A stretch of 64,000 nucleotides of DNA. Origin: a virus. The DNA is taken from positions 3,331 through 67,330 of the IMG/VR virus record IMGVR_UViG_3300019927_000044, one strand, 5' to 3'. Positions 1,090-49,403 of this stretch are shown piece after piece. Within the stretch, counting starts at the first letter, position 1. The number at the start of each line of letters is the position of its first letter. Made by a program: the position numbers and the translations under genes. The notes beneath the pieces are model-generated. The model searched no databases, had not been told where the DNA came from, and saw only the letters and a program-made list of their open reading frames with translations.

Positions 1090-1892
1090 AGTTGTTCAAG
1101 GTATTCTGTTGGGTCTTGTAGGTGGTCTGGGTCCATTTCTATAACTGTATTCCCATCGAAGGCCTTGAAGGCACTATAGATGGCGTCTGAGGCAAGTACT
1201 GCCTCTTTCGTTTCCTCGTACAGCATTTCGGGGCCGTCATCAAAGTGCCCAGCAACAGCCTCGTAGTCCCAGTCGGTCGGTACTTCGCCGACGTATTCTT
1301 CCTCAGCGACACTATCATTATCGGTATCAATGAGTGTGAAATACACAAAGACAGGCACGTCATAGGCAGCCGCGTGTTCAGCATAGTGGGCCAGATGTCG
1401 GAGATTCAACTTCCCCAGCCATGACGAACTACTTTTCGTCTTCACATCACCGATAGCACGTAGCTCCCATTCAAGCTCGTTGAAATCGTCACCCATTGAA
1501 AACGCTGGATACGTTTCTCGAAGCGTGGTTTCGCCATAGGGCGTTGTGATGTCGGAAGGCAAGAACGACTGCTGTCCTTGGGCCTCCCACAGCCGAAGGT
1601 CCATCTTGTTGTCGAAAATAAGGCCATCTTCACCACTCTCACCTCTCATGTCTACGCCCCAGTTTTCAACTTGGAAACCGCGCTGTTTAATCCGTCCTTT
1701 TAGATGGGCCTCACCCCAGTCGTGTTTATCATAATTGTTTAGTAAACTGTTCCATTCGGTGTCCATATTTTCTGAACCACACTCTGGACATACTTCTGAA
1801 CCTGCGTAAGATTTTTCACCACAATCTTCGCATTTTGCACCTCTGTTCAAGTCGTCTGACGTGATGGAATTACTTTTATTCATTATTCCCAC
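1086..1892 (-). CDS. Zn-ribbon + PD-(D/E)XK restriction-endonuclease-like protein
   Basis: CEDCG...CPECGS ribbon; E(GEAHL)...MDLRL...GDVKTK catalytic pattern. Confidence 0.5.
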   Translation of the reverse strand: MGIMNKSNSITSDDLNRGAKCEDCGEKSYAGSEVCPECGSENMDTEWNSLLNNYDKHDWGEAHLKGRIKQRGFQVENWGVDMRGESGEDGLIFDNKMDLRLWEAQGQQSFLPSDITTPYGETTLRETYPAFSMGDDFNELEWELRAIGDVKTKSSSSWLGKLNLRHLAHYAEHAAAYDVPVFVYFTLIDTDNDSVAEEEYVGEVPTDWDYEAVAGHFDDGPEMLYEETKEAVLASDAIYSAFKAFDGNTVIEMDPDHLQDPTEYLEQL

Positions 1893-2272
1893 CTCTTTTC
1901 GGCACTAATACGTCCATGCTCTTCATGTTCTTCAATCTTTAGATTTTCGACTCTGTTGTCTATTTTCATGTTATTTTCATGATGAATATCTTTATTTATC
2001 ACAGAACTAAAACCGTGTTCAGCAATTGCGATTAGCCTGTGTATTTTAACAGAACATCTTTCATTGCACGCATTTGTCTGTACCACTTCATATCCATTAG
2101 AACTACTAATTGTGTGATATGGTGGTGTGAACTTTTTTATATCAAACTTTCTAACCCATTTTCCTATAGTACTTCGTGAAACGTCACACTTTTTTGCTAT
2201 TTCAGCTTGTGTAAAGTCTTCTTCTACGTATTTTTTACGTAGCCAACTTTCGTCTCTATATTTTTGCCCCAT
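1883..2272 (-). CDS. HTH + HNH endonuclease (free-standing, AT-rich)
   Basis: TQAEIAKKCDVSRSTIGKW HTH; IHRLIA...DIHHENNMKIDNRVENL HNH. Confidence 0.85.
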   Translation of the reverse strand: MGQKYRDESWLRKKYVEEDFTQAEIAKKCDVSRSTIGKWVRKFDIKKFTPPYHTISSSNGYEVVQTNACNERCSVKIHRLIAIAEHGFSSVINKDIHHENNMKIDNRVENLKIEEHEEHGRISAEKRWE

Positions 2273-2704: not shown

Positions 2705-3358
2705 TTAGTATTCTTTGTAGTCTTCATTTTCTACCGTTCTATGACAAGATTTACACAATGTTTTAAGATTTTCTTCAAAGTTGCCATTTTCTGGTTCATC
2801 GAAATTTCGTATAGGTATTATATGATGCACTGAAAGGTCTACATCATATTTCTCTAAATGCTCACTCCGAGTAATACCACACTTAACACATTCAAAATCA
2901 TCTCGTTCTATTTGTGCCTCTCTTACAAATTCCCAATTTTTACCATATTTTACATCTCCACCCTTCCATCTTGGGTGATTTTCACCAGACATTTTCTCAC
3001 TATGTATGGAATTAAAACATTTATCCGAACATACAACATCTCCACAAACTTGTGATGGCCATTTTTCAACATTTTTATCACAATTTTCACATTGGTATAC
3101 TTCTTTCCCCCCAGAATATGAAGGTGAATCCTCTCCAGAACCGTTTCTCATTTCGGCTAAGAATTTTTTATGACATTCAGAATTACAGAAATGATTTTCA
3201 TGCTCTGACGCTCTACTATGAATTTTGTCAAAATTATCGCCACAATATGTACATTGTACACTTACTCTACTATCATGTTCCAGACCTTCATGTGCCCCGC
3301 GTGCTTGTTTGGAACCGAATACGCTATCACAAAATCTACACTTTACATCATTTTCCAT
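2705..3358 (-). CDS. Zn-finger HNH endonuclease (homing-type)
   Basis: C2H2 and CxxC repeats; ERDDFECVKCG...VHHIIP...NLKTLCKSCH; AT-rich. Confidence 0.9.
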   Translation of the reverse strand: MENDVKCRFCDSVFGSKQARGAHEGLEHDSRVSVQCTYCGDNFDKIHSRASEHENHFCNSECHKKFLAEMRNGSGEDSPSYSGGKEVYQCENCDKNVEKWPSQVCGDVVCSDKCFNSIHSEKMSGENHPRWKGGDVKYGKNWEFVREAQIERDDFECVKCGITRSEHLEKYDVDLSVHHIIPIRNFDEPENGNFEENLKTLCKSCHRTVENEDYKEY

Positions 3359-3379: not shown

Positions 3380-6300
3380 CTACATAAATTTTTCTATATC
3401 TGTTTGTTTTGTATCTGAAATCATTGATTTATAACTCCAATTCATGGCCGACAGAATCGGCGTCAACGAACTGCCGATGGTCTTCTGCAACTGCGTGTCC
3501 ATGTCGATGACGAAGTTATCTGGTACCTTGTTTGGATTCTCGACCGACACTGCATCGACGTTCATTCCATCCTCTTTCGTTTTGGCAGTGTACGTACTGG
3601 GCCAGTCACCGCGGACACGTTCGATGTGTAGTAGTTGTGGCTTACTACCTTCACCCATGTGTTCCCAGTCGAAGTTCTTGTTCGCGTACTTTGCACCGCG
3701 ATACGTTGTCGATGGTAGCTCAGTGGGCGACCCGTACTCGTCTGGGTGCATGCTCATTCCCTTTGGACGGGCGATGTGGGCGTTTGAACACTCACCCCTT
3801 TGGGCTGTATCGTATGCAGTCTTGATGCGCTCACGGATGGCCTCACGCGCCTTAGAACGCTCGTCAATTCGAAGGATATGTTCGAGTACGTCACTGCATA
3901 CCTCGCGGGTAATCGTTGCTCTGTCAGACCGCACTACGTCGATACCAGTCACGTTAAACTCTGCTGGGTCGAACCATTCACCCTCTTCCCATGCGATAAT
4001 TTCTGCGTATCGTTTCTTCCCTTCTGCATTTTTCGTCGCTGGCTCTGGAACAAACAACCACGGCGCATACGACTCTATCTCTAATCTGCAATAATGCTCA
4101 CCATTCTTAATATTAAATGTATCTTCTGTCCACTCATTGTACCATTCGTTAACGCGGTCAGCAGCATCGTGCGCAATCTCTACAACCTCTTCCATATCAT
4201 CGCGGTCCTCGATATCGACATACGGAACAGCGCTCATGACACTATCCGTATCTCCCCCCACAAGTCGGGCGTTCCGCCCGTCGTAACCGCGTTCTTCTTT
4301 AATATCATTTAACGCACCAACGAACTTATCAGATGAGTCGATAATCATCTTCCTTCCACCAAGTGTAATCCCTTCTGCAATGCGCCAATCATACAGTCTG
4401 TAGCCCTTTCCGTAGGAATTACTGTCTCCGAACACTCCGTAGCAATTCGGTATATTGGTAAATTTTCCATTACGTCCAGCAACAAGCATATGATTATCTT
4501 CTACTTGGATGCAGTAGACGCCATTCTGTGCCCGCTCACGAGTCTCGTCACGATGACAGCGGAATGACATATTCGACCGCTCTGTACGCCAAAAGACACG
4601 CCACACCGAGTCACCATGTCTGGAACTATCATCTTCTGTATAAGTCACTGGGTGACCAGTTTCCCACACGAGGCGCATGAAATCGTCTCGAAGATTTGTC
4701 GAAACTGTTGTATATCTCTTTGGTGTATCAGCAGTATCACCATCACCTTTCATCATCGTATCACGTAGCAGCTTTTTCTGCTCCGTACTACATTTTTCAA
4801 ATACCCAAGATGGAATGGTCATATTGTAGCTCCCCTCACCACACCACTCAGTCAACATCTCGGCCCATACAGAACCGCTGTGGTTAATATCTGTATCTGT
4901 GACAGTGTACGATAGCTCCATTTCTTCAAATAGCTCAACTATTTCGCTGTGATGGTCTGGATGCACAGACTTATACTGAGAGATGGATATCCTATCACCA
5001 CGAGGTTCATCACCACTAAGATAAACTGAACCCTCAGTAATAAACCACCCAAGAAGCTTAATAACATTATCAGCATCATAATGTCTTGGGATGGCGTTGT
5101 GTCTTCCATTATCACTACAGCGGATAGATTCATCGGTGGTATCACCATCGTAATAATCCGCGAGGTCGATGGTATCTATACCACTACCATCAGTAGAAAT
5201 CCAATTGTTTGGAGTTTCGTATTGTGTCCACTTATTAAGGTTGCCAGCCTCGGTGTATTCGTATCCTCCACCATGTCGTGGTTTATTGGCGAGGAATCTA
5301 TGGTCTGGCGTTACTTTCAAGTCCATGGATTGGTTCTGTATGTGAACAATTTCACCATCATAGTTTGGCTTTTCTATTGTCTCTGTAACTGGTTTAACCT
5401 GCATTTCTTTTGTTTTTGGGTTGTACGAATACACATCATCACCAACCTCAATATCTGTAATGTTTCGGACCCCATCTGGTGTCAGTACTTCTGTATCGGG
5501 CGTGAAGCAACTATTCACAACCCTCTTAACGGCACTGTAGAGGTCTGTACCATCGTAATCGTTTTTCATTTCCATCAATTCATCTACAACACTATTCATA
5601 AACCCTTCTTTTATCGACGGTTTGCAGAAGTATAGCTTTTCATAATTGGGGCTATCCTCCTTTTTTATGTTCTTTGTACGCGTGTCAATGTATGTCCACC
5701 GACAGTCGTCTTTCGTATATTCAGACGCTTCTAAGTCCTCTTCTGTCCCAATAAGCGTTTCTGGGGACATATTACAGTTCCGAATCATGTTCGGATACAT
5801 CGACCATAGGTCTGGATATACAGCGTTCTTATGCCGCCCAAACTCTGGGGTGAAGTTGTGTGCCCCATAGTACCAATCCCGCTCTGGTTTCTCATTTGTT
5901 GGTAGTGCAATACCAGCATTATAGGCTTCACGAAGAATAAATGGGTCGAGGATATCAATGTTGTTATGGCAGTTATCGAACTGCACGCCTGTCAGCTTAC
6001 GAATGTTCTGGAATAGGTCGGTGACGCCCGCACTGTGGTCGATTCCTACAACGGCCTGCACGTCACGCATGTTGTATTTCAGGAACAGTTCAGGCTCGTC
6101 ACGCCACGCACTGTCGATATCTTCGATTTCTTCTTTCCCGAAGCCTAATTCCCGATTAGCGATGTTTTCGAGGCCGTACCCACCATTGGGCTTGCTGTAC
6201 TGGGTCTTCTTATAGGCCTTCATCATGTCGAAAAAGGTCAGACCTTTGCCAGACGGTCCCCAGCTACCGTCCCAGACCTGCTCCATTGGCGACCAACCCT

Positions 6301-7228
6301 TGAATGACATGATGTTACGTGCCTTACAGCGGTTAATGAGATAGGGGTAGTCGAAGGCCTTCCCATTGTCAGTAGTCGAGGAATTCCAGCCACCAAGCAT
6401 GTCGGGCTGTTTGTCAGCGACGTACTGATTGAAGTTATGAAGTAGCGCCGACTCTTCGTCAAACACACGTACGTCGCTGATATTGACTGGATGGCTGTGG
6501 TCGTCAGTTTCGATAGTGTCTGGCCGATTCTCGACGGCCATATTCTGTATTTCAGTATCGCTGTAGGCCCAGCCCTCATAGCGCAGTACCCAGACAGTGT
6601 ACTCGTCGGTATAGTTGTCGTGGGCAGTGATGGCCGTGACGGGCTGGTCAGCCTCGTCTGGGTCAGGAAACCCGTCTGGACTCTCAACCTCAATATCAAT
6701 CGTTATCTGACGAGGGTCAGCCTTCCAGTCAGCGTCGATGGCTTCAAAATCATCGACGTGAACGCGGTAGTCGCCATTAATGTACTGTGAGTCCCACGTT
6801 TCGTCCTTGTCGACTTCGATGTGGGTATAGATACCATTGTCAATGAGGAATCGCGTGGTGTAGAATACGTCAGCTTCCCACGTTGTATCAAAGTATTCTC
6901 GCAACCCCTCTTTGTCACGACCGCCATTGATATGCTCTGGCAGCTTCGTGTACACTCTCGCAAGGTCGTCGCCATGAATTGACTCGTAGCCACCTTCGGC
7001 GGTTTCGACCCACTGATGATTCTTGACGCGCTGGCTGTATGCATCTCGCTCGATATAGAACGATGGCAGATGCCCTTCAACTTCGACCCAGCGAGATTTT
7101 CCACTTCGTGTCCGACAGAACAGATAGACAACAGGTTCCTCGAACTGTTCGCGGTACTCGATATTCATTATATGCAACTGTTCTGTGTTACTGCCACCGT
7201 CGTCAATAAAGTCGTTCAATCCAGCCAT
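3380..7228 (-). CDS. polB: Family B DNA polymerase with intein
   Basis: ExoI IDIE, ExoII FDYPYL, ExoIII YNMRDV; polymerase motifs DLWSMYP, KRVVNS/CYG, GDTDS. Confidence 0.97.
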   Translation of the reverse strand: MAGLNDFIDDGGSNTEQLHIMNIEYREQFEEPVVYLFCRTRSGKSRWVEVEGHLPSFYIERDAYSQRVKNHQWVETAEGGYESIHGDDLARVYTKLPEHINGGRDKEGLREYFDTTWEADVFYTTRFLIDNGIYTHIEVDKDETWDSQYINGDYRVHVDDFEAIDADWKADPRQITIDIEVESPDGFPDPDEADQPVTAITAHDNYTDEYTVWVLRYEGWAYSDTEIQNMAVENRPDTIETDDHSHPVNISDVRVFDEESALLHNFNQYVADKQPDMLGGWNSSTTDNGKAFDYPYLINRCKARNIMSFKGWSPMEQVWDGSWGPSGKGLTFFDMMKAYKKTQYSKPNGGYGLENIANRELGFGKEEIEDIDSAWRDEPELFLKYNMRDVQAVVGIDHSAGVTDLFQNIRKLTGVQFDNCHNNIDILDPFILREAYNAGIALPTNEKPERDWYYGAHNFTPEFGRHKNAVYPDLWSMYPNMIRNCNMSPETLIGTEEDLEASEYTKDDCRWTYIDTRTKNIKKEDSPNYEKLYFCKPSIKEGFMNSVVDELMEMKNDYDGTDLYSAVKRVVNSCFTPDTEVLTPDGVRNITDIEVGDDVYSYNPKTKEMQVKPVTETIEKPNYDGEIVHIQNQSMDLKVTPDHRFLANKPRHGGGYEYTEAGNLNKWTQYETPNNWISTDGSGIDTIDLADYYDGDTTDESIRCSDNGRHNAIPRHYDADNVIKLLGWFITEGSVYLSGDEPRGDRISISQYKSVHPDHHSEIVELFEEMELSYTVTDTDINHSGSVWAEMLTEWCGEGSYNMTIPSWVFEKCSTEQKKLLRDTMMKGDGDTADTPKRYTTVSTNLRDDFMRLVWETGHPVTYTEDDSSRHGDSVWRVFWRTERSNMSFRCHRDETRERAQNGVYCIQVEDNHMLVAGRNGKFTNIPNCYGVFGDSNSYGKGYRLYDWRIAEGITLGGRKMIIDSSDKFVGALNDIKEERGYDGRNARLVGGDTDSVMSAVPYVDIEDRDDMEEVVEIAHDAADRVNEWYNEWTEDTFNIKNGEHYCRLEIESYAPWLFVPEPATKNAEGKKRYAEIIAWEEGEWFDPAEFNVTGIDVVRSDRATITREVCSDVLEHILRIDERSKAREAIRERIKTAYDTAQRGECSNAHIARPKGMSMHPDEYGSPTELPSTTYRGAKYANKNFDWEHMGEGSKPQLLHIERVRGDWPSTYTAKTKEDGMNVDAVSVENPNKVPDNFVIDMDTQLQKTIGSSLTPILSAMNWSYKSMISDTKQTDIEKFM
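4445..5509 (-). mobile_element. Intein (355 aa) with LAGLIDADG endonuclease in PolB motif B
   Basis: Begins CFTPDTEVLT, ends GRNGKFTNIPN before Cys+1; LLGWFITEGS and TMMKGDGD blocks. Confidence 0.92.
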
Positions 7229-14869: not shown

Positions 14870-14899
14870 TCAACAGAGGCTGAAGCCGCATCTCGCAAC
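14870..14899 (-). repeat. Synonymously diverged duplicate of the last 9 codons plus stop of the 14937-15035 gene
   Basis: GTTGCGAGATGCGGCTTCAGCCTCTGTTGA vs GTTGCGAGATGCGGCTTTAGCTTGTGCTAA; both encode VARCGFSLC*. Confidence 0.9.
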
Positions 14900-14936
14900 C
14901 TTTGAGAGTGTGTAACACTCTCATTCGGTAGCAGCT

Positions 14937-15035
14937 TTAGCACAAGCTAAAGCCGCATCTCGCAACGCACCGCTCACAGCCTTCGATGAACGCAATATCG
15001 CTACCACAGTCAGGGCATTTATCGAGGTGTCCCAT
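14937..15035 (-). CDS. 32-aa CPxCG zinc-ribbon microprotein
   Basis: MGHLDKCPDCGSDIAFIEGCERCVARCGFSLC; GTCAGTACG motif 11 nt upstream. Confidence 0.7.
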   Translation of the reverse strand: MGHLDKCPDCGSDIAFIEGCERCVARCGFSLC

Positions 15036-22732: not shown

Positions 22733-23569
22733 TTACATAAAGGTGTCGGATGCTTTTTCAGCAAACTCGTCTGGGTCACAGTCTTTCCACCGTCCTTCAC
22801 AACGACTGTGACAACTGCTACAAAGTGTAATTAAATTATCTAATGTATTAGAATCAGACACATTATCAAAATCACTTCGAGGTTTAATATGATGAACGTG
22901 GTTGGATTCGTCTTTAAATTCGCATACTTGACAGATATAGCTGTCACGGTCTAACCTTTCTTGACGTATTTCTTCCCAACCAGAACCATACGCTCTTTCA
23001 CCAGTACCAGCCAACTCTTTCATATCTAATCTATTAATTTTCAATCCAGCTTCTTTCAATGCCTCATTCCACGACCCAAAATTTCTTTGATAAGTTGTAC
23101 TATCCCAAGGGCCGTCATCATTCATATCCCCCTTTGTTGGCGTTCTGCCCAATTCTTCTGCAAATTGCTGTAAATCTTCTATTAATTGCCGTTTAGATTT
23201 TACACATTCTATCTTTTTATTAATATCTAATCCAGCCTCTTCTAATGCATTATTCCATGACCCAAAATGTCGATGATAAATATTTGCATATCTCTGTCCA
23301 AATTCTTCCATTTTTTCTTGTGTTGGGGGACCGTCCACTTTTTCTGCAAATTGTTGGAGGTCTTTTATTAATTGTTCTTTAGACACCCCCTTTTCTTGGT
23401 TAACATCTAATCCAGCCTCCTTCAATGCTCCATTCCACGACTCAAAATACTTCACATAAGTTGTCGGACTCCACGGACCTTCATCATTCATGTCGTTTTG
23501 CGTCGGCGTTTTACCCAACTCTTCCGCAAAAATCTTCAAGTCTTCTATTAATCGGTCATCGCTAACCAT
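22733..23569 (-). CDS. HNH endonuclease with three homing-endonuclease-associated repeats
   Basis: Three LIEDLxxFAEELGxTPT...FGSWNxALxEAGL repeats; RDSYICQVC...HVHHIKP...NLITLCSSCH. Confidence 0.9.
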   Translation of the reverse strand: MVSDDRLIEDLKIFAEELGKTPTQNDMNDEGPWSPTTYVKYFESWNGALKEAGLDVNQEKGVSKEQLIKDLQQFAEKVDGPPTQEKMEEFGQRYANIYHRHFGSWNNALEEAGLDINKKIECVKSKRQLIEDLQQFAEELGRTPTKGDMNDDGPWDSTTYQRNFGSWNEALKEAGLKINRLDMKELAGTGERAYGSGWEEIRQERLDRDSYICQVCEFKDESNHVHHIKPRSDFDNVSDSNTLDNLITLCSSCHSRCEGRWKDCDPDEFAEKASDTFM

Positions 23570-23937: not shown

Positions 23938-24798
23938 CTATTGCCCTCCAAGAACGTTTTCAGTATCGAAGTTTTCTATAACTTCCATATAGCGCTCTCG
24001 CTCCCTTGAGCGGGCATGTTCCCTGTTGTGACAGATTTCTATATCTACTACATCAATAAATTCTATTTTTCCAGACTCTCTATATTCCTTCACATTATGT
24101 GATGGAATTCTATTCACTGGCGAGTTTGTCATACCAACGTAGTACCACACTTCATTAAGTGAATTTTTTAATTTTATTGTGTAAACATATTGTTGGTGGT
24201 TATATAAATTATTTTGCTGCATATATTTTTTAACTTTTTCTTCAACATCCTTTGGCGATGGGGTAGACCCTACATCTGTGGCCCATTTTAATCCATCTAA
24301 TAAACGAACGCGCCTTTTTGACTGCTCAAATTCTTTCATTTCAGAGTTATTAAATGGGTTTTTACTATTACCGTTTTTAGCATCATATTCTGCAAATGTT
24401 TCGTATATTCTTCCAAATTCTTTGTCCATAATATATGATATAAACCGCCGTCCTTCTTTTGAGCGCATTACATCCTTGTTATATGTATATTCATTATGTA
24501 TTCGAAGCTTTTTACTAACATAATTATAAAACCATTCAAACCCCCACTCTTTAGCCACACTTCTATCCATTTGTTCTATTTTAACGTATGGCCTAAATGC
24601 TATATACATATCATGTGCGAGAAACCTGCTATGCATCCTATCGACAGCTTCACTACACACTTGAAACTTAGAACTTACACTTCTACCGCCTTTGTTATAT
24701 TTAATTTTTGCTTTTGTACCCACTGGTTTCATGAAATCGCATTTAGAACTATCAAACAATCCTATACGCATCCATTCTCTCTGAGACATACGAAACAC
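23938..24798 (-). CDS. GIY-YIG endonuclease (C-terminal nuclease domain)
   Basis: YVYTIKL...YYVGMTNSPVNRIPSH...ERE; AT-rich, basic. Confidence 0.8.
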   Translation of the reverse strand: MFRMSQREWMRIGLFDSSKCDFMKPVGTKAKIKYNKGGRSVSSKFQVCSEAVDRMHSRFLAHDMYIAFRPYVKIEQMDRSVAKEWGFEWFYNYVSKKLRIHNEYTYNKDVMRSKEGRRFISYIMDKEFGRIYETFAEYDAKNGNSKNPFNNSEMKEFEQSKRRVRLLDGLKWATDVGSTPSPKDVEEKVKKYMQQNNLYNHQQYVYTIKLKNSLNEVWYYVGMTNSPVNRIPSHNVKEYRESGKIEFIDVVDIEICHNREHARSRERERYMEVIENFDTENVLGGQ

Positions 24799-33299: not shown

Positions 33300-33542
33300 A
33301 TGCAACACACCACCGTCGTGCCAGAAAACGCCGAAAGTCGAAAAGCCCAGAAACTATCAACGTGCCCGTACTGTTGCGCAAATGCAAACCGTTTAGATAG
33401 TACGTGGTATTTCAAGTGTGAAGGTGAAACGCGGCATACGTACCACGCGGATGATTATGATGGCATTCGACAGACTGATAATACCATTTACGGTAATGTT
33501 GAAGATAACATTTCCGTAACCCCGAATTACGGTAAGCTGTAG
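33300..33542 (+). CDS. Small Zn-finger protein (80 aa)
   Basis: CPYC...C after GAAGGGTTTATAC. Confidence 0.6.
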   Translation: MQHTTVVPENAESRKAQKLSTCPYCCANANRLDSTWYFKCEGETRHTYHADDYDGIRQTDNTIYGNVEDNISVTPNYGKL

Positions 33543-33606
33543 GCGGGCAGACTTTTTTATTTGGCTGGCGATATGCGTGGCAGTAATGTCGAAAGGTTTA
33601 ATATAC

Positions 33607-33745
33607 CCTACCTCATTTGTTGAGGTACGCGACGGTAAGCGTGGTTTCCCTACGCCTTACCCGATTTGTAAGCCCTGTATCGGAATTGAAAGATTCCGTA
33701 CGTGGGGACGACTGATTTTCAATCAGTAGCCCCCAAACCAAAGGA
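33607..33745 (+). ncRNA. Structured leader or small RNA upstream of the glycosylase gene
   Basis: Five consecutive hairpins between TATA and ATG; two have G-U pairs on the + strand. Confidence 0.5.
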
Positions 33746-33755
33746 CAACACTACA

Positions 33756-34424
33756 ATGTCAGACATTCAATCCGTACGTGAATGGATAGTTGACCACAAC
33801 GAAGATTATGCTCAAGTGCGTAGCCGTTTGGATGCATGTCGGAATGTCATCCTTCATGGTCGTTTGGACGCCGCCAGTGAAATGCTGAGGGCGTCTTACA
33901 TCAATGCGGTCCTTTCCATCAGAACCGCGAAAGACCGTCATGAAAACGCATTTGCGGCGTACTATGCCAGTGATAAAGTGTCACTGAAAGATGCAGCCCT
34001 ACAAACGGTGTATGGTGGGCACAAAAAGAACTGGCTTAACCGTACCCATAATAAGGTAGACTGGGAAATGCTGGCTATTGCAGTCCGCCAGCATATTAAA
34101 AATGGTCGCATCAAGAAGCTACTTGAAACCGTCGTGGATAATATTGTCGGTGTGTCATATCGCAAAGGTTCATTTATGCTGGCAATGGTCGGCATGCATG
34201 AATACATGTGTATCGATAGCAATGTCGGAAACTTTGCAGATATTGACACCGATGGGGACTATTACAGCGCGACGGCATACCTATCTGATTGTAAGGCCAT
34301 ATATGACGAAATAAATGCTCAGTGGCTTCCGCCGTTTATTGTCCAGTGGGCAATATATGACGTGGAGCGCGGCGAACATGCCCGTCATATGCCGTTTTAT
34401 AATCAGGTGTTAGGTGGCAAATGA
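33756..34424 (+). CDS. HhH-GPD DNA glycosylase/lyase-like protein (Ogg2-like)
   Basis: NIVGVSYRKGSFMLAMVG...MCIDSNV...QWAIY parallels the Ogg2 IKGIGYKEASHFLRNVG...IIDRH pattern. Confidence 0.65.
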   Translation: MSDIQSVREWIVDHNEDYAQVRSRLDACRNVILHGRLDAASEMLRASYINAVLSIRTAKDRHENAFAAYYASDKVSLKDAALQTVYGGHKKNWLNRTHNKVDWEMLAIAVRQHIKNGRIKKLLETVVDNIVGVSYRKGSFMLAMVGMHEYMCIDSNVGNFADIDTDGDYYSATAYLSDCKAIYDEINAQWLPPFIVQWAIYDVERGEHARHMPFYNQVLGGK

Positions 34425-34588
34425 AGCCAGTATCGGCACTTAAAAAAGACGGTAATATTGTTGCACTATTTGAAGAGCGAAAAGACGCCTATCAGCTACG
34501 TGAGGAGAAACAAGAATTTGAAGAGTGCCACTTTACAGTAGAAAAACATATCCTCTATCGGGATATCGAAGATAGAGAACAGCTGTAG
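34421..34588 (+). CDS. Small hypothetical protein (55 aa)
   Basis: Manual translation; ATGA overlap. Confidence 0.55.
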   Translation: MKPVSALKKDGNIVALFEERKDAYQLREEKQEFEECHFTVEKHILYRDIEDREQL

Positions 34589-34670
34589 GGTGGTTTTTTT
34601 TTGGTCGGTGGATATGCGTGACAGTAATATCGCTGGATTTATATACATGGCAGTGTATGAACTAAGTGTA

Positions 34671-34973
34671 ATGTCCGAACTTGATGTTGCTGTCGGCGCG
34701 GCAGTTGAATCGGCTCAAAAAGCATACGACAGCGGTGACAAAAACCCCTTCGACCACGGTTTTGCCCATCTTGAGGTAGATGGTCGCACAAGCCTCGCAA
34801 AGGCGCTACAAGAACACCCAGCGGTAAACGCGTCCGATTCATCATACGTTACTGTTGATGGACTCTCACGGTATCTCACGCCCCAGCAGGCGGGCTATAG
34901 AGCGTTCATCGAGACGTTAGAAGACTACGGCGTTGATGTGGGTCATGTTTCGCGGCATGGCCGTCTTGACTGA
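34671..34973 (+). CDS. Hypothetical protein (100 aa) ending RLD
   Basis: DHGFAHL...YRAFIETLEDYGV...RLD resembles a recurrent phage hypothetical family. Confidence 0.65.
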   Translation: MSELDVAVGAAVESAQKAYDSGDKNPFDHGFAHLEVDGRTSLAKALQEHPAVNASDSSYVTVDGLSRYLTPQQAGYRAFIETLEDYGVDVGHVSRHGRLD

Positions 34974-35058
34974 CAATTGAGGTTTTTTTTGGTCGGTGGA
35001 TATGCGTGATAGTAATATCGACAGACTTAATACATCTCATTCTAAAGTACTAATCGCA

Positions 35059-35232
35059 ATGTCCAATGCACGAAAAGCTCAGATATGGTACGATGTTAGA
35101 ACCGATGAAAGGGAACATACCGATATTGTTCAAGTGGATGATATAGAGAAAAGTGGTGATATTATAAAAATCTGGCTTGAAGGTAGTGAAGAGCCAGATT
35201 ACTATGTAAATGGTGTCCATTTCTTAGAGTAG
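35059..35232 (+). CDS. Small hypothetical protein (57 aa)
   Basis: Follows a promoter module. Confidence 0.6.
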   Translation: MSNARKAQIWYDVRTDEREHTDIVQVDDIEKSGDIIKIWLEGSEEPDYYVNGVHFLE

Positions 35233-35311
35233 GGCAGCTTTTTTTTAGTCGGTGGATATGAGTGACGGTAATATCGACAGACTTAATACACACCATTTCA
35301 TTTACTGATGT

Positions 35312-35512
35312 ATGCTCTTTGGCCGATGTCCGCGATGTGGTGATGTGGCGGAATTGTTCCACGCAAATGCTGTAAAGTGTCTGTGTAAGCATTGTATTCG
35401 TACGACTGAGAGAAATTCACGTTTACAAAATCATGGCCGTCCAGAGTTACCTCATGATAAGAATGATGTACAATTAGTGTATCAAGTAGATAGAGTATAC
35501 TCACAATTGTAG
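35312..35512 (+). CDS. Small Zn-finger protein (66 aa)
   Basis: CPRCG...CKHC after a promoter module. Confidence 0.6.
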   Translation: MLFGRCPRCGDVAELFHANAVKCLCKHCIRTTERNSRLQNHGRPELPHDKNDVQLVYQVDRVYSQL

Positions 35513-35519
35513 AGTGACA

Positions 35520-36330
35520 TTTTTTTTTGGTCGGTGGATATGCGTGACAGTAATATCTTTTCTAAGACGCTGTATGGCTTTCTCAGCAGTTTTTGACGTA
35601 TGAGGGTTCCAACTACGTGCCCCACAAACAAACCGCCCTAACACGTACTGACAGACTTCTAAGCTGGTTCTTACGGTGGTAATGAGAGAGAATAGGTAGG
35701 TTGTGGGTTCTGGCTGGGAGAGTGTTGTAAGGAATGCATGGGAGTTATTTCTGTATGTATGGGCGTATTTACTGGTAGATATGGGCATATTTAGTGATTG
35801 AATGGGTGTAATTGCGGGAAGATATGGGGGTGGGTACTTGTGCGGCGACGAAAATAACCTGTAGTTATACCCTAATAGCCCACAGACGGCCATGCCTTAC
35901 ACGCGTACGTAACGCAAAACGGCCAGAAATCAGATTAGCGGGTGTGTGCTGGCTTACACGGGCGTGAGAAGCGGATAACTGACGGTAATGAAAAGGTGGG
36001 GGACATATGCAGCTAAGAAATGATGAAATAGTACTTCACAAATATGCGATGAAATAGTACTTCACACCTTTACCTAATACATCCTAATATGACCTTGTAC
36101 ATTTCATGTCAGATATGTGGACTGGCAAGTATTGCCGCCAAACCACTCTCAATCAGGTAGCCGCAATCTATCAGTCAGACAGAATTAAGGACAGTCGACA
36201 GTGTATAAGGGTGTATAATGCATGTATAAGGTTTTACGCGTGTACAATCTACCTTTACAGCTATAGTAGTTTCACGTCTATAACAGTGAAACAAAGTCGA
36301 TAACTCAAAGACATATTTGCCAGTACAAGA
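35520..36330. other. ORF-poor region with iteron-like repeats (origin or genome-end candidate)
   Basis: G-rich + strand at 35670-35870; 19-bp repeat at 36022-40 and 36048-66; TGTATAA three times at 10-11 bp spacing, 36201-29. Confidence 0.45.
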
Positions 36331-36333
36331 TTG

Positions 36334-36585
36334 CTACCTGCTGTAAACAGCGGCATTAACGGTTTCGCCAGCTTTAAGTGGGGTAAGGTGCATTGTACAA
36401 GTACATCAAGTCAGGAGCTACCCGCCACTTGCCCACCCTTCAAACCCTCTTGCTGGGGTTACACCGTGAAACGTCGAAGGGCTCGATTCAAACAGCAGGT
36501 CCGTGTGTTGTCCACGGGAATGGTTCACTGAGGTAGTAGAAGCCCGTTAAGAGCGGTAAGTCTTCGAACGTTCGATACCTCATGC
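36334..36585 (+). ncRNA. Putative structured ncRNA C (~250 nt)
   Basis: 9-bp closing helix 36336-44/36492-500 with nested helices; further domain closed by TGAGGTA/TACCTCA. Confidence 0.55.
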
Positions 36586-36725
36586 AATCACGACAAAGGC
36601 GCTGTACAGCCACACAAAGCCCTACAAGGCGACGTAACCATGTAAGACGGTAAGAACTAACCAGCGGCGTGATACCAAAACCTATCCGCTATATTCACGC
36701 TAAACAGGTAATACAGACTTCAACG

Positions 36726-37019
36726 ATGCACATCAATTACAACGACAGCGGCAAAATCGAAAGTATAGATGTCGACAAATACGGCGATGTTCGAACGGAA
36801 GTAGAACAGGCGTTGCAACGGTTTTTCCACAACAAAACGGCCAAAGTCCGCGCTGGGCTTGTGGCTGCTGGTGTAAGCGACTTGAACAAGGCTCATCCGC
36901 ATTCTAAGCGGTATCAAGACATGGCTGATGACATGACCGTGGAAATCGAAGATATCACTCATACGCGGCGTGGATACGAATGTGAGGCTACTCGCGTCAT
37001 CATTCAGGAGGCTAACTGA
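36726..37019 (+). CDS. Hypothetical protein (97 aa)
   Basis: ATG start MHINYND. Confidence 0.6.
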   Translation: MHINYNDSGKIESIDVDKYGDVRTEVEQALQRFFHNKTAKVRAGLVAAGVSDLNKAHPHSKRYQDMADDMTVEIEDITHTRRGYECEATRVIIQEAN

Positions 37020-37020
37020 T

Positions 37021-37329
37021 ATGACTGAAGCAAACACTCAAGCTATCCGCGTGTACGTCCCTATCAATGCTCCAACTGATTCGCACCAAGACGTGAAGAG
37101 CTATTTCAGCCAGCGTTTCGGTGGGTACACTGAGTATAACGTGAATGGTGGGTGGGAAAGTGACAGTGGGCAATGCATTCAAGAACCAGTAAAAATCTAT
37201 GAATGTGTGGCTGATACAAACGAACCCGTTACCGTGGCAAAACGACTGGCTCAAATGGTCAAAGCACAATCAGATGAAGATACTGTCATGTGGGAAATTC
37301 GACCTGTCACTGTGATGGGTATGGAATAG
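37021..37329 (+). CDS. DUF3574/PII-like small protein
   Basis: FGGYT...GGW...G...EPV pattern. Confidence 0.5.
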   Translation: MTEANTQAIRVYVPINAPTDSHQDVKSYFSQRFGGYTEYNVNGGWESDSGQCIQEPVKIYECVADTNEPVTVAKRLAQMVKAQSDEDTVMWEIRPVTVMGME

Positions 37330-37584
37330 CACACCCGCCCGTCGAAATTGGTCAAGTGGGTAACATCTTTTTTATCGGGGTGCGGGGTGCATACACGCCT
37401 GCTCTGTGTCATTTTGATATCCCATATATAGCGACCCGCCGACACGTTTTGAGCCTCATTTTTTATTTTTTACAGATTTGACCCAAAATTGCCAGAATTT
37501 AGATTAGGGGGTTACAGCAACGTAAACATAAATTACAACTGTTATAAAAAAAAAAGAGTTGTAGGTCTTACAACATGTTGCTGC

Positions 37585-37821
37585 TCACTCGTGATGCATC
37601 CACCGCTCTGTCATAATTAGCAGCCGTCGCCAGTCGTGTATCCACGGATGTCGAGGGGAAACACCGTAGTCAAGTATTGGATACATTTCTGACACTTTTT
37701 TGCTAAAACGGCGCTGTTCTATGTCAGGGTGCTCAGACGCCAGCTTCGGTATGTCAACATTTCCGTCACTCTTGATAGCTCGTTTTGCTATCAACAATTT
37801 AATATTTGGGTTATTCGTCAT
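37585..37821 (-). CDS. Hypothetical protein (78 aa)
   Basis: Coupled to the HNH gene. Confidence 0.55.
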   Translation of the reverse strand: MTNNPNIKLLIAKRAIKSDGNVDIPKLASEHPDIEQRRFSKKVSEMYPILDYGVSPRHPWIHDWRRLLIMTERWMHHE

Positions 37822-38229
37822 TTAAATAGGTCCAGAATGTATTTTACCATGACACGTTTCGCACAGCGTTAACAAATTTCGACGTGTGTTCGTCCCGCCA
37901 CAGCCCAGCGGTACAATGTGGTGAATCGGTGCGCTCGCATCCACGTCAGACCCGCACCCTTGGCACGTATAGTCGTCCCGCTCTAAGACGTATTCTCGAA
38001 GTGCTTGCCAATCGTCATCACGTGGGTAATCCCGAAATCTGACATGGCCGAGGAAATCGTCGTATGGTTCTTGTTTCACCCATTCAGTTGTAGAAATTAC
38101 CCCAGCGTTGTCTCGTGACTTTGCACCACGGTACCATATTTGATTCGAGTCATCGTGATGCGTTGTCACGACCTCACCCTCTTCGACATTGTGGTAATAA
38201 ATATTACCGACACGTATTTTCTGACTCAT
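37822..38229 (-). CDS. HNH endonuclease, possibly packaging-associated
   Basis: ERDDYTCQGCG...IHHIVP...GGTN...NLLTLCETCHGKIH; near the terminase genes. Confidence 0.9.
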   Translation of the reverse strand: MSQKIRVGNIYYHNVEEGEVVTTHHDDSNQIWYRGAKSRDNAGVISTTEWVKQEPYDDFLGHVRFRDYPRDDDWQALREYVLERDDYTCQGCGSDVDASAPIHHIVPLGCGGTNTRRNLLTLCETCHGKIHSGPI

Positions 38230-38495
38230 AGTGGAATATCGTCACGGTCGTAGCCAGCCTGTTCCAGACGGCTAACTGCTCGCCGTCGTTCATCGAGGTT
38301 GGCAACAATTTCGTGCAATTCATCTCGCTGCTTCCGTATCGCTACTTTACGTTCCAGCCTTTCTTTCACAGCAGTGACATGACCCTCATTGATATCCGAC
38401 GTGTCACTAATTGGAACCATTACACGTTCTTCTTTCCCACCAGCAGTTACGTGAACAACTGCAATATGTTCAGTAACCACCTCAGTCCACGTCAT
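38226..38495 (-). CDS. Hypothetical protein (89 aa)
   Basis: Start MTWTEV. Confidence 0.6.
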   Translation of the reverse strand: MTWTEVVTEHIAVVHVTAGGKEERVMVPISDTSDINEGHVTAVKERLERKVAIRKQRDELHEIVANLDERRRAVSRLEQAGYDRDDIPL

Positions 38496-38556
38496 TGGTA
38501 ACAGCCCCATCCATATTATAATATAATAGCTGTAACTACTAAAGTGTTGTGGTACG

Positions 38557-38875
38557 CCACGACCCCGCCCTTCCTCTGGCCTGCAACGGAATCTTTCGAT
38601 TCCTTGCGTGGCCCGCAAGACGAGTCTTGCATGGCCATGTAGGGGTTGTCCTCTACAGGCCACGACTGATTTTCAATCAGTAGGGGCTCCCGACAGTAGC
38701 CAGTTTACTGAAAGCTTCTGAGACGACGCTGAAGCGGTTTGAATATCAGCATGACCAATACCACTCACTTTCTATTCAAACCGATTGAGCGTCGACTGTG
38801 GGCGACTGAGTATGGGTTGCTGGTGAGACAGTGGGCGTGATATAGAAGCCCCACTCAAAAAATGGGCGGTCGTGG
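38557..38875. ncRNA. Putative structured ncRNA D (~320 nt), strand unresolved
   Basis: Terminal helix CCACGACC/GGTCGTGG plus GCCC/GGGC; perfect 11-bp stem 38735-45/38773-83; several hairpins. Confidence 0.6.
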
Positions 38876-38969
38876 TGGGCGGACTACAAACGTGTCGTCC
38901 CCTCCGCAGACTATTACTGCGAATCATAACACTTAAGTTACTGGGACCGTTAGTAATATATACAGCAAT

Positions 38970-39566
38970 ATGACGGTGCCAGAACACCAGTTGGATAGAA
39001 GTGAAGGGAACGGTAGTAGTGCTGGTATTGATGATAAGTACGACGGAACCGAATACCAGTCAAAAGACAAACGTAGTGATACAAAGACGACATTTTACGA
39101 ACATGATATTGACTCACTTGAGGTCAGTCAGCGGCGAAAGCGGCAGTTAAAGCGTTCACTACGTCGACAGGAAGGTGAAGATTTCGGTGAAGGGACGACC
39201 AAAGACCGAAATTACCGCAGTCGGAAAAAGCAAAACCGTGAAGAATGGCGACGACGCATTGTCTTGACTTATGCATCGCAGGCAGAGCTAACTGATAGGC
39301 AGAAAGAGCGGTGTGTCCATTGGATGATGGATGTGCTTGAAATGACTTCATTTGGACCCTATTCGAAGGAGAAAATAGCCCTCGGTGTTGTTAACGTCGT
39401 CGGAAATAGTGAAGGCCGCATGCTTGAGGATGAAGAACTGTTTCAGGACCTGATGCGTGCGGCTGAAATAACGTTGGACGACAATGAGACACCAGACCAT
39501 GACACAATGGGCCGATTACGTGGTTTGGTACGTGACCGTATCCCAAGTCAAAAACTCGACGGATAA
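38970..39566 (+). CDS. TFB-like (single cyclin-fold) transcription factor
   Basis: TTF...KRSLRRQ...YASQAELTDRQKERC...YSKEKIALG parallels the TFB linker and first cyclin repeat; no Zn ribbon. Confidence 0.55.
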   Translation: MTVPEHQLDRSEGNGSSAGIDDKYDGTEYQSKDKRSDTKTTFYEHDIDSLEVSQRRKRQLKRSLRRQEGEDFGEGTTKDRNYRSRKKQNREEWRRRIVLTYASQAELTDRQKERCVHWMMDVLEMTSFGPYSKEKIALGVVNVVGNSEGRMLEDEELFQDLMRAAEITLDDNETPDHDTMGRLRGLVRDRIPSQKLDG

Positions 39567-39629
39567 TTTGTCAGTACGTTCCAGTGTGGAGAAGGCATCT
39601 TTGATGCTTGAACCACATGGGTCACTCTA

Positions 39630-40598: not shown

Positions 40599-40776
40599 TA
40601 GGGAAGATATTGTTGCGGCTGAATGGAACGATGCTGATGCAAGTGACCATCTTCCACAGCACCCAGACGACGTGAGTGAGCTATGGGATGCTGATAAAAT
40701 GGCGATTGTCAATTACGAAGATGGTCGACGTACGGGCGTTGTAACTGCTGAATATCCCATTTCGGTGAGACGATAA
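40591..40776 (+). CDS. Small hypothetical protein (61 aa)
   Basis: Coupled to TerL. Confidence 0.55.
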   Translation: MANREDIVAAEWNDADASDHLPQHPDDVSELWDADKMAIVNYEDGRRTGVVTAEYPISVRR

Positions 40777-48211: not shown

Positions 48212-49324
48212 ATGGCAACGACTTCTTTCCATACTGAAGAAGATTTCACTGAACAGGTTAGTCCCGACGAAGACCTCATGCTTGAGCGTGAGGGTCGTGA
48301 CCGTCGTGGTGTCCGTCGAGAGATGGCCCCACTGAATGTCATGGAGCGTGGGACGCGAAAGATTGAGGAAGGCGATGGGACGTATGTGCAGCACGATTCG
48401 TCCATGCCGACTGGTACCACTGGCGTTGGCGAGGTTCTTGGCAACGTCGACATCGTTCGGTACCTCGGTGACGAAGTGCTGATTCCGCGTATGACGCACT
48501 CCATGGCGCTTGACGCCGAAGACCTTGACCTTGGCAATGCCAATGAAAAGGTCCAGCGAGCGCAGGATACCGTCATGGAGATGTTCGACATTCAGGCGGA
48601 CCTACAGTTCCTCAAAGGCATTACCGATGAGGAAGGTAACGAGGTTCAGCCCGATATCTTCTCGTGGCTTGATAACAACATCCCGAGCGGAAATGTTATC
48701 GACGCGACGAACTACACGTCGGACTATTCGCTGTCGAACGGACAGCCGTCGAACATTATCCAGCGTGTTGCCTACCAGAACACGCAGGGTATCTATGCCG
48801 ACGACGCATGGGACATGGCGCTGTGGAAGCATCCTGTAGAGGCACTGTGGAACACGATTGACGACAACAGCGGCTTCGCGCTTCAGAGTCAGTGGGTTGA
48901 CATGGGCGCTGACGCGGCTGGTGTCGGTAACTCTGTCGTTGGCGATACGGTCAAGATTCCGAATCAGGTTGGTCTTCGCACCGCGCCCGACCAGCCCGAT
49001 AGTCTTCAGTTCGACATCGACTTCCCGACTCGTCAGAACTCCTCGTACGACTCGCCCATTGGTGACATCGAAGGGTTCACGGATGACGACGACGTGATGT
49101 ACCTCATCCCCGACCACGGTGGGGACTTCTTCTCGATGTACGAGCATCCCGAACCCACGCTTATTCAGGAGCCTGTCCGCAAGAACGGCGGGCGTCTTGA
49201 GTACGAGTACTACTGGCGTGCTGGTCAGGCATTCGGCTTCGGTTCCCACAAGACCGACGACGGTGCTGGTGGCGATGTTGCGTACGATGCCATCAAGATT
49301 GAGAACGTCTCTGCGCTATTCTAA
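48212..49324 (+). CDS. Major capsid protein (HK97 fold)
   Basis: 370 aa; position; AQDTVMEMFDIQADLQFLKG backbone-helix pattern. Confidence 0.85.
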   Translation: MATTSFHTEEDFTEQVSPDEDLMLEREGRDRRGVRREMAPLNVMERGTRKIEEGDGTYVQHDSSMPTGTTGVGEVLGNVDIVRYLGDEVLIPRMTHSMALDAEDLDLGNANEKVQRAQDTVMEMFDIQADLQFLKGITDEEGNEVQPDIFSWLDNNIPSGNVIDATNYTSDYSLSNGQPSNIIQRVAYQNTQGIYADDAWDMALWKHPVEALWNTIDDNSGFALQSQWVDMGADAAGVGNSVVGDTVKIPNQVGLRTAPDQPDSLQFDIDFPTRQNSSYDSPIGDIEGFTDDDDVMYLIPDHGGDFFSMYEHPEPTLIQEPVRKNGGRLEYEYYWRAGQAFGFGSHKTDDGAGGDVAYDAIKIENVSALF

Positions 49325-49403
49325 CATGACGGTGGGAACTGATAGCGCAGATGCAGAGCGGACTCATGCTACGCAGAGTCCGAAAGTCTCTGCGCTATTC
49401 TAA
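49307..49403 (+). repeat. 18-bp direct repeat of the MCP 3' end around a 61-nt spacer containing its 10-nt complement
   Basis: GTCTCTGCGCTATTCTAA at 49307-24 and 49386-403; ATAGCGCAGA at 49342-51; GGACTC/GAGTCC hairpin. Confidence 0.92.

Follow-up and report, generated by a model that had tools for sequence, protein, structure and literature searches.

A hairpin resembling a tRNA anticodon limb in two short insertion cassettes of an archaeal virus

A 22-nt sequence, ACGACTGATTTTCAATCAGTAG, occurs twice in the 64,000-nt stretch of viral DNA analysed here (positions 3,331 to 67,330 of the IMG/VR record IMGVR_UViG_3300019927_000044, hereafter the window), and each copy forms the right edge of one of two homologous two-hairpin cassettes with a core of ~57 nt. 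One cassette lies in the leader of a glycosylase-like gene (site 1) and the other ahead of the packaging genes (site 2). The 22-mer is identical to part of real tRNAs outside the anticodon, close relatives lack one or both cassettes, and at each site the 22-mer is enclosed by an outer helix whose two strands match. The reading favoured here, tentatively and with a little less than even confidence, is that a recently copied cassette carries a tRNA-limb-like hairpin serving as an RNA module in leaders. The window, with a G+C content of ~47%, is nearly all of a 67,387-bp virus record, the nearest cultured relative being HATV-2, a haloarchaeal myovirus of the Soleiviridae (TerL 48% and 'endonuclease III' gene 30% identical). 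Up to ~30.4 kb the genes point leftward and from ~39 kb onwards rightward; the 30.4-39 kb in between is an early, accessory region of small genes, with five copies of a T-run and promoter repeat and five copies of the GCCAGAAATYAGATTAGG motif.

Both copies of the 22-mer are exact and read on the + strand (Table 1), as had been noted in a preliminary description made from the letters alone, and their flanks differ as reported there (GGGG/CCCC at site 1, CC/GG at site 2). Shuffled sequences give an expectation of 0 for such repeats, and no third copy with <=3 mismatches was found in the window or the whole record. The 5-bp stem and 7-nt loop drawn in that description correspond to the same hairpin (hairpin D) with two U-A pairs opened, since its minimum-energy fold has 7 bp and a 3-nt loop; the common fold of hairpin D at site 1 has an energy of -12.0 kcal/mol. 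Compared with shuffles, the site-1 leader folds at z -3.6 on the + strand, and site 2 at z -5.5 on the + strand and -3.9 on the - strand; several stem pairs are G-U pairs on the + strand only. The 22-mer also contains ACTGATT-N3-AATCAGT, a 17-bp near-palindrome with perfect 7+7 arms. Outside this virus group, an unrelated metagenome contig of 54% GC (L049, 1482-1505) holds an exact 22-mer, extended to 23 nt with either flank. This copy is not part of a tRNA but overlaps the beginning of an open reading frame (ORF) behind a bacterial-type AGGAG, an occurrence due to chance or unexplained.

Resemblance to tRNAs was assessed by running the 22-mer as a pattern, with its three central letters free, on public metagenome contigs and IMG/VR. 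The anticodon-arm likeness that had been proposed was borne out: 13 of the 23 metagenome matches and all six viral matches fall in tRNAs called by ARAGORN, at the same position in each. The 13 are in sense orientation, ~5 further metagenome matches adjoin an obvious T arm, and in IMG/VR 6/6 matches are array-borne tRNA-Thr(UGU) genes; read backwards as a control, the pattern had 0 viral matches. The tRNA matches are mostly in phage tRNA arrays, and the free triplet reads UGU, UCC, UGC, CGU or UUC. The 22-mer equals tRNA nt 24-45 at 19/19 non-anticodon positions, a span that takes in the D stem at its 3' end, nt 26, the complete anticodon arm and two nucleotides at the start of the variable loop. 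The tRNA-Glu(UUC) of contig L035 and the tRNA-Thr(UGU), tRNA-Gly(UCC) and tRNA-Ala(UGC) of phage arrays are identical to it over this span save for the anticodon, and the bacterial tRNA-Glu(UUC) on L035, a metagenome contig, matches window positions 33706-33729 at 24/24 (tRNA nt 23-46). The anticodon arm is recognisable by its 5-bp stem and 7-nt loop, U33, a purine at 37 (the loop being of the A37-A38 type) and the flanking nt 24-26 and 44-45, with a purine mismatch of the G26/A44 type between stacked helices. Taken with its outer helix, the 22-mer would imitate the stacked anticodon/D limb of a tRNA, this mismatch included.

Unlike a real tRNA, however, the element lacks the acceptor stem, the D-stem 5' strand and the T arm, and the nucleotides following nt 45 pair with nt 22-23, which yields one long hairpin. 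Neither ARAGORN nor Infernal calls it: ARAGORN, a check suggested by the preliminary description, finds 0 tRNA genes in the window, the Rfam tRNA family RF00005 is not matched at E<=10, either within 33400-39100 or across the entire record, and no cloverleaf is seen. Across all Rfam families, none reaches the gathering threshold in the window, and matches at E<=10 within 33400-39100 are at chance level only. Among the 185,579 species genomes of GTDB, the pattern occurs only in two alphaproteobacterial metagenome-assembled genomes and in 0 haloarchaeal ones. The 35 tRNAs of HGTV-1 were considered as a source of the arm and rejected, the best in-register match being 12-13 of 22. That the two sites are decayed tRNA genes would agree with the 24-nt identity to a tRNA-Glu and with the existence of tRNA arrays in haloviruses (PMC8651126), for example in HGTV-1, which gave 34 tRNA matches. 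Nevertheless, this idea is already largely refuted, and we consider it extremely improbable: the missing acceptor, D-arm 5' strand and T arm argue against it, as do the recent insertion of the cassettes, the lack of a tRNA at either place in any relative, and the lack of an HGTV-1 tRNA resembling the arm (best 13/22).

The two cassettes are homologous well beyond the 22-mer. When the two cores are aligned, cassette 2 without its nested insert has the same build as cassette 1, and the order in both is flank TG.A.C, stem GGAAT, a 6-nt loop, stem ATTCC, linker.T.CGTGG, two letters and then the 22-mer; the copies agree at 22/22 positions within the 22-mer and at 23/30 in the remainder of the core. 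A further shared piece (15/17) lies just downstream of TATA-like boxes at both sites. The left-hand hairpin (hairpin C, which in cassette 1 has a GAAA loop closed by a U-G pair) was described earlier as a second hairpin shared at 16/17 nt in opposite orientation. The match itself stands, at 17/18 (33682-33699 on the + strand and 38586-38603 on the - strand), but the opposite orientation does not: only the 6-nt loop is reverse-complemented between the copies (5/6), whereas stem and flanks, like the cassettes as a whole, are collinear. Small hairpin-loop inversions in non-coding DNA are well known from chloroplast spacers, and hairpin C resembles them in its collinear stem and flanks and its flipped loop; they account for the orientation of the second hairpin only, not for the 22-mer.

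This loop flip also bears on the proposal that the + strand RNA of site 2 pairs in trans with the glycosylase leader through the copies of hairpin C, or that, inside site 1, loop C (UUGAAA) forms a kissing pair with loop D (UUUCAA). Same-strand transcripts would be complementary at 17/18 positions, and ATTGAAA/TTTCAAT offers 7 nt of loop-loop complementarity within cassette 1; yet such complementarity is the automatic outcome when the loop of a duplicated hairpin is flipped. The energy of the duplex is only ~2.6 standard deviations better than that of shuffles, one of which beat it, and is not informative, and the sister virus has site 2 with no site-1 target. Riboregulation of this kind is regarded as very unlikely.

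At their junctions the cassettes have GCC (left) and CAGTAGCC/CC (right) in common, which fits template switching at microhomology, and the cassette may have been copied by this route. In a target-duplication test, AGCCC was found at both site-1 junctions and only GG at site 2. Three structural candidates were rejected in passing. A bulge-helix-bulge intron as the cause of presence and absence would need two 3-nt bulges across a 4-bp helix, where by eye the cassette ends leave 5-6 unpaired nt; a kink-turn at the ACG/AG internal loop, or at the GTGAG/TGATG flanks of hairpin B, failed by eye because the tandem G-A geometry or C stem is absent or not conserved; and L068 9475-9489, which matches hairpin C at 14/15, is part of a promoter repeat and forms no hairpin.

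In relatives of 94-97% identity one or both cassettes are precisely missing, and neither occurs in any of the more distant relatives, so that, judged by sequence comparison, both are recent, dispensable gains. At site 1, cassette 1 is missing in L051/L052 (gene 94% identical), which read GTAAGCC directly followed by CCCAAAC across the site, and also in L064, L067 and L068. Metagenome contigs with joints at 33674>33748 and 33603>33748 point the same way, with short sides and hence as weaker evidence. At site 2, a contig of run X2 lacks exactly 38577-38682 (joint 38576>38683, side 105), a contig of run X3 lacks the nested insert alone, 38611-38659 (joint 38610>38660), and in L055, whose flanks are 97% identical, 14 other nucleotides replace 38578-38698. 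No trace of cassette 2 was seen in 12 syntenic relatives (L006-L025 range; TerL 65-76% identical), and neither cassette was found by blastn or regular expression in any of the 23 loci that a TerL query retrieved from viral contigs. The sister population L053/L054, which shares its samples of origin with L051/L052, carries cassette 2 (97-98% identity) and no cassette 1; going by these sequences, site 2 was probably filled before site 1. In this one homologous copy the loop triplet does vary, reading UUU in place of UUC.

Wider searches returned little. In blastn against cultured phages the region had no match, and a 34-nt hairpin query gave only one 17-nt match at chance level. A provirus or host search of GTDB genomes with TerL and the glycosylase-family alignment yielded no confirmed relative, and the glycosylase-like and 198-aa proteins as queries against viral contigs found no relatives. 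Further copies of the exact 22-mer in IMG/VR number 0, as do matches there to the patterns of hairpin 3 and of hairpin 1 with the linker, and no copies of cassette parts were found in IMG/VR or GTDB genomes, haloarchaea included. The count of two copies in the window genome and one in the sister virus thus falls short of the many copies of miniature inverted-repeat transposable elements (MITEs).

The genome is rich in mobile nucleases and other hairpin inserts, and a purely selfish origin is therefore a strong rival, which we nevertheless consider unlikely on balance. It holds that the cassettes are hairpin-rich junk DNA, selfish or neutral, spread by template switching or by some unrecognised nuclease or transposase; the hairpins would be a by-product of origin and repair, and the tRNA likeness would be inherited from a functionless fragment of a tRNA gene. 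In agreement with it, relatives 94-97% identical dispense with the cassettes, the genome encodes four HNH genes, one GIY-YIG gene and a PolB intein and holds other short hairpin inserts with flanking target duplications, and the cassette junctions show microhomology. It is harder to reconcile with the perfect retention of the 22-mer when the remaining cassette is down to ~77% identity, with the matched outer helices at both sites, with the lack of further copies in IMG/VR and GTDB, and with the lack of a Y1 transposase or integrase in the virus (Y1 HUH transposase PF01797, no match in the record at E<=1; integrase PF00589, no match). An attachment site of an integrative element was rejected on similar grounds, as there is no integrase and the arm occurs in no haloarchaeal GTDB genome.

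Known mobile elements offer partial parallels. The PeSL elements of T4-type phages are promoter and stem-loop repeats that mediate module shuffling. Like these, and like MITEs and palindrome-associated transposable elements (PATEs), the present cassettes are short, hairpin-bearing and non-coding, lie in a variable early region and are present or absent among close relatives; in contrast, they consist of two hairpins without a promoter, have two copies and show neither clear terminal inverted repeats nor a consistent target duplication. The neighbouring T-run and promoter repeats (33551-35579) behave like PeSL, with deletions between copies. In detail, there are five copies of this 62-nt repeat, each before a small gene, and related-virus contigs carry deletions exactly between copies (34595>34983, 35034>35239), a form of gene-cassette shuffling like that of the T4-type promoter/stem-loop cassettes.

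A 4-bp outer helix surrounds the 22-mer in 3/3 contexts, with differing letters. Its 3' strand is pre-existing flank DNA, and the inner letters of the cassette match the landing place, a fit that could stem from selection for pairing or from templated repair. These helices also bear on whether the near-palindrome acts at the DNA level, either as an operator for a dimeric regulator or as a recognition or homing site of a viral nuclease. The perfect 7+7 palindrome would suit such a site, as would the many homing nucleases of the genome and the location of site 2, which lies within a divergent promoter and packaging region at a distance of 430 nt from an HNH gene. A DNA operator is nevertheless unlikely, given the total of only two sites, the lack of half-site enrichment and the covariation of the outer helix, for which duplex DNA has no need. 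Moreover, conservation runs asymmetrically into the ACG/AG internal loop and the hairpin loop, site 1 is ~100 nt downstream of its TATA box, and the HNH gene is syntenic in relatives without the cassette. Taken together, a role as a DNA site of either kind appears improbable.

Site 1 lies between the BRE/TATA-like box (B recognition element and TATA box), which may act as a promoter, and the start codon of the glycosylase-like gene. The preliminary description had considered a 140-nt structured leader unusual for haloarchaea. Of that leader, ~75 nt are conserved across the virus group (homologues in L051, L064, L067 and L068) with a covarying hairpin, hairpin B, and only 57 nt are an insertion, cassette 1, which interrupts this family-wide leader. 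Around hairpin B, GTGAG and TGATGTAAG are invariant (the latter reads as a mini-frame ATG ATG TAA), and the hairpin is followed by a Shine-Dalgarno (SD)-like GGTGA and then ATG. From its sequence conservation the leader (window 33596-33673; L051 6903-6975; L064 7902-7974; L067 116-185; L068 7912-7977) looks like a cis-regulatory RNA. In the window, hairpin D ends 26 nt before the ATG, and a purine-rich AAAGGA stands ~10 nt upstream of it, where relatives have SD-like GGTGA/GAGGT. The gene itself has 67 homologues; the label 'glycosylase' given to it earlier is weak, since the Pfam Ogg-HhH (helix-hairpin-helix) match has E=0.014, below the cut-off, and relatives are annotated as endonuclease III. 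A different insert is seen in L051 (6860-6925) and L052, where ~40-57 nt with two hairpins lie inside the glycosylase promoter, flanked by diverged duplicates of the promoter piece (GAAAGACTTcATAAT / GGAAGACTTAATACA), a hairpin insertion with target duplication.

Site 2 is in the divergent intergenic region, 459 nt long, that separates the packaging block's first gene from a small leftward gene; TerL of this block matches phrog_675. Transcription probably starts near the promoter-proximal shared piece, to judge from its position after TATA-like tracts. In the same region, at 38848-38925, ~100 nt upstream of the first packaging gene, lies an element of the form CCC(A)CTCAAAAA(A)YGGG..GTCG..GG then CCCCTCCGCAG, conserved in L006, L015, L016, L019, L020 and L024, which is a candidate packaging (pac) signal. 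In HATV-2, CCCCGTCAAAA occurs twice (L004 238-250 and 398-410), adjoining a terminal repeat of ~290 bp.

Table 1. Coordinates in the window of the cassettes, their parts and neighbouring features
Feature	Position	Strand	Remarks
22-mer copy 1	33708..33729	+	exact match; equals tRNA nt 24-45
22-mer copy 2	38662..38683	+	exact match; copy in L053/L054 differs, loop TTC -> TTT
Extended hairpin D, site 1	33704..33733	+	outer helix GGGG/CCCC 4 bp, internal loop ACG/AG, 7-bp stem, loop UUC
Extended hairpin D, site 2	38658..38688	+	outer helix GGCC/GGCU in window, GGCC/GGCC in L053
Cassette 1, 57 nt	33676..33732	+	hairpin C (33681-33698), 9-nt linker, 22-mer
Cassette 2, 106 nt	38577..38682	+	hairpin 1 (38578-38613, contains loop-flipped hairpin C), nested insert, 22-mer
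Nested insert, 49 nt	38611..38659	+	hairpins 2 and 3; flanked by GGCC repeats
BRE/TATA-like promoter CGAAAGGTTTAATATA (putative)	33590..33605	+	read from sequence; repeat family D2, one of five copies
Hairpin B, conserved leader	33634..33661	+	8/11 predicted pairs keep pairing, with changes on both sides, in 5 viruses
HhH glycosylase-like gene (endonuclease III / Ogg-like)	33756..34424	+	tblastn to HATV-2, HGTV-1 'endonuclease III'
Promoter-proximal shared piece	38545..38561	+	15/17 to 33618-33634; after TATA-like tracts; conserved in L053, L055
First packaging-block gene, 198 aa	38970..39566	+	synteny in 12 relatives; then 322 aa, TerL at 40776
Mobile nuclease, HTH+HNH_3	1883-2272		
Mobile nuclease, HNH	2705-3358		
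PolB intein	3380-7228		
Mobile nuclease, HNH_repeat+HNH	22733-23569		
Mobile nuclease, GIY-YIG	23938-24798		
Packaging-linked HNH	37822-38229		

According to the favoured reading, each 22-mer is the conserved hairpin at the right-hand end of a short insertion cassette that would have been gained recently. It would have entered first ahead of the packaging genes, where alone the sister virus has it, and later been copied, in the lineage of the window, into the leader of the glycosylase-like gene. Copying probably proceeded by microhomology-mediated template switching, with the 6-nt loop of the left hairpin flipped on the way. Promoter-like boxes on the + strand precede both copies by a few tens of nucleotides, and the copies are thus most likely transcribed within 5' leaders. 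There the hairpin and its locally matched outer helix would form a continuous stem mimicking the anticodon/D-stem limb of tRNA(Glu-UUC), or of Lys-UUU in the sister virus. The cassette would be a portable, dispensable RNA module whose sequence-specific top, the internal loop and anticodon-type hairpin, is kept, probably because it is recognised by a tRNA-binding protein, while the base of the stem needs only to pair. A role as RNA is supported by the position of both copies behind promoter-like boxes on one strand, the better + strand folds with their G-U pairs, the matched outer helices and the unchanged state of the 22-mer in cassettes that have otherwise diverged.

Several points weigh against this reading. 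Transcription of both cassettes, and its strand, is read from promoter-like sequences. Comparison is limited to three copies (two from the window and one from L053/L054), only two base pairs underlie the covariation, and templated repair of a quasi-palindrome could yield it without selection. Identity of 22/22 against a background of ~77-87% is only moderately unlikely (0.3-5%). The absence of further copies of cassette parts in IMG/VR or GTDB leaves a mobile family unsupported, and no tRNA-related enzyme or RNA-binding protein was recognised among the 44 scanned ORFs. The site-1 contig joints have the short sides mentioned above. Finally, near-identical viruses do without the cassettes, so any function would be optional.

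In bacteria, the thrS operator of E. coli is an anticodon-arm mimic in an mRNA leader. The present elements are like it in having an anticodon-type hairpin with an extended stem in a 5' leader, at site 1 a few tens of nucleotides before the ribosome-binding site, and differ from it in that the downstream genes are glycosylase-like or packaging genes and not a tRNA synthetase gene, the host is archaeal and the insertion is optional. A bolder form of the favoured reading, which we think quite unlikely, is that a portable tRNA-limb module moved between leaders of archaeal viruses and engages a reader of the anticodon/D limb of tRNA-Glu or tRNA-Lys, either as a decoy against anticodon-directed defence or as a handle coupling the fate of the mRNA to a tRNA-binding protein.

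A related proposal, again improbable in our view, is that of an anticodon decoy proper, in which the transcribed hairpin would soak up or misdirect a nuclease cutting tRNA-Glu(UUC) or tRNA-Lys(UUU), or another defence protein that reads the anticodon loop. The true tRNA-limb identity accords with this, as does the variation of the cassettes among close relatives, accessory elements of this sort being typical of counter-defence genes. The loop variants UUC and UUU are both among the tRNAs cut by known anticodon nucleases, a set that includes the target of gamma-toxin (PMC2275089) and the tRNA-Lys targeted by PARIS and PrrC (PMC11464382). Virus-borne accessory RNAs with U-rich anticodon loops are indeed used against defence, tRNA-Lys of phage T5 neutralising PARIS (PMC11464382), and the present loops (UUC, and UUU in the sister) are likewise U-rich. 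However, known viral countermeasures, such as these chargeable tRNAs, are whole tRNAs, whereas here an anticodon limb only, with no cloverleaf, lies inside longer putative transcripts. The minimum-energy fold narrows the loop to 3 nt, the arm occurs in no haloarchaeal genome in GTDB, and one or two copies embedded in mRNA would be a weak sponge. It also counts against a decoy that, to our knowledge, no anticodon nuclease has been described from haloarchaea.

Other repeated elements were met in the same genome. The mobile nuclease load of the window is unusually heavy (Table 1). Hairpin spacers of 37-61 nt at 14881-14965 and 49307-49403 are flanked by 18-30-nt direct repeats of a gene 3' end and share no sequence with the cassettes studied here. 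The motif GCCAGAAWTYAGATTAGGRGG has five early-region copies (32006, 33040, 33096, 35922 and 37491), is also present in HATV-2 (L004 342-362) and in another relative (L068 9259-9280), and is probably a regulatory or promoter element. At 35700-35830, in a 1.1-kb stretch without convincing genes, direct repeats of ATGGGNGTNTTT spaced ~22 nt apart resemble the iterons of replication origins. The motif TGTCAGTACG is strongly enriched, with 18 matches at <=1 mismatch against 5.7 expected, and is found at 39569, 46031, 47591, 54133, 63182 and other positions, mostly on the + strand and before late genes, a distribution that supports its reading as a late-promoter motif. It was considered as an identity for the promoter-proximal shared piece and rejected, since with <=1 mismatch it occurs at neither site.

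The cassettes relate to two known kinds of element, tRNA-arm mimics and mobile hairpin cassettes, here in an archaeal virus. Their filled and empty alleles coexist naturally in hypersaline-lake metagenomes and can thus be compared directly. Should the cassettes have no function, they would be a clean example of how hairpin cassettes arise, are copied and have their loops flipped in a nuclease-rich viral genome, of limited general interest. If an RNA function is true, archaeal viruses would use partial tRNA mimicry, with the anticodon limb alone placed in mRNA leaders, and would trade such modules as small cassettes in the variable early region. We know of no tRNA-directed defence or regulation in haloarchaea, and the hairpin would then provide a handle on such processes there. 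An anticodon limb engaged by a reader of tRNA-Glu or tRNA-Lys would, if true, be the first case of an archaeal virus using an anticodon mimic other than a tRNA.

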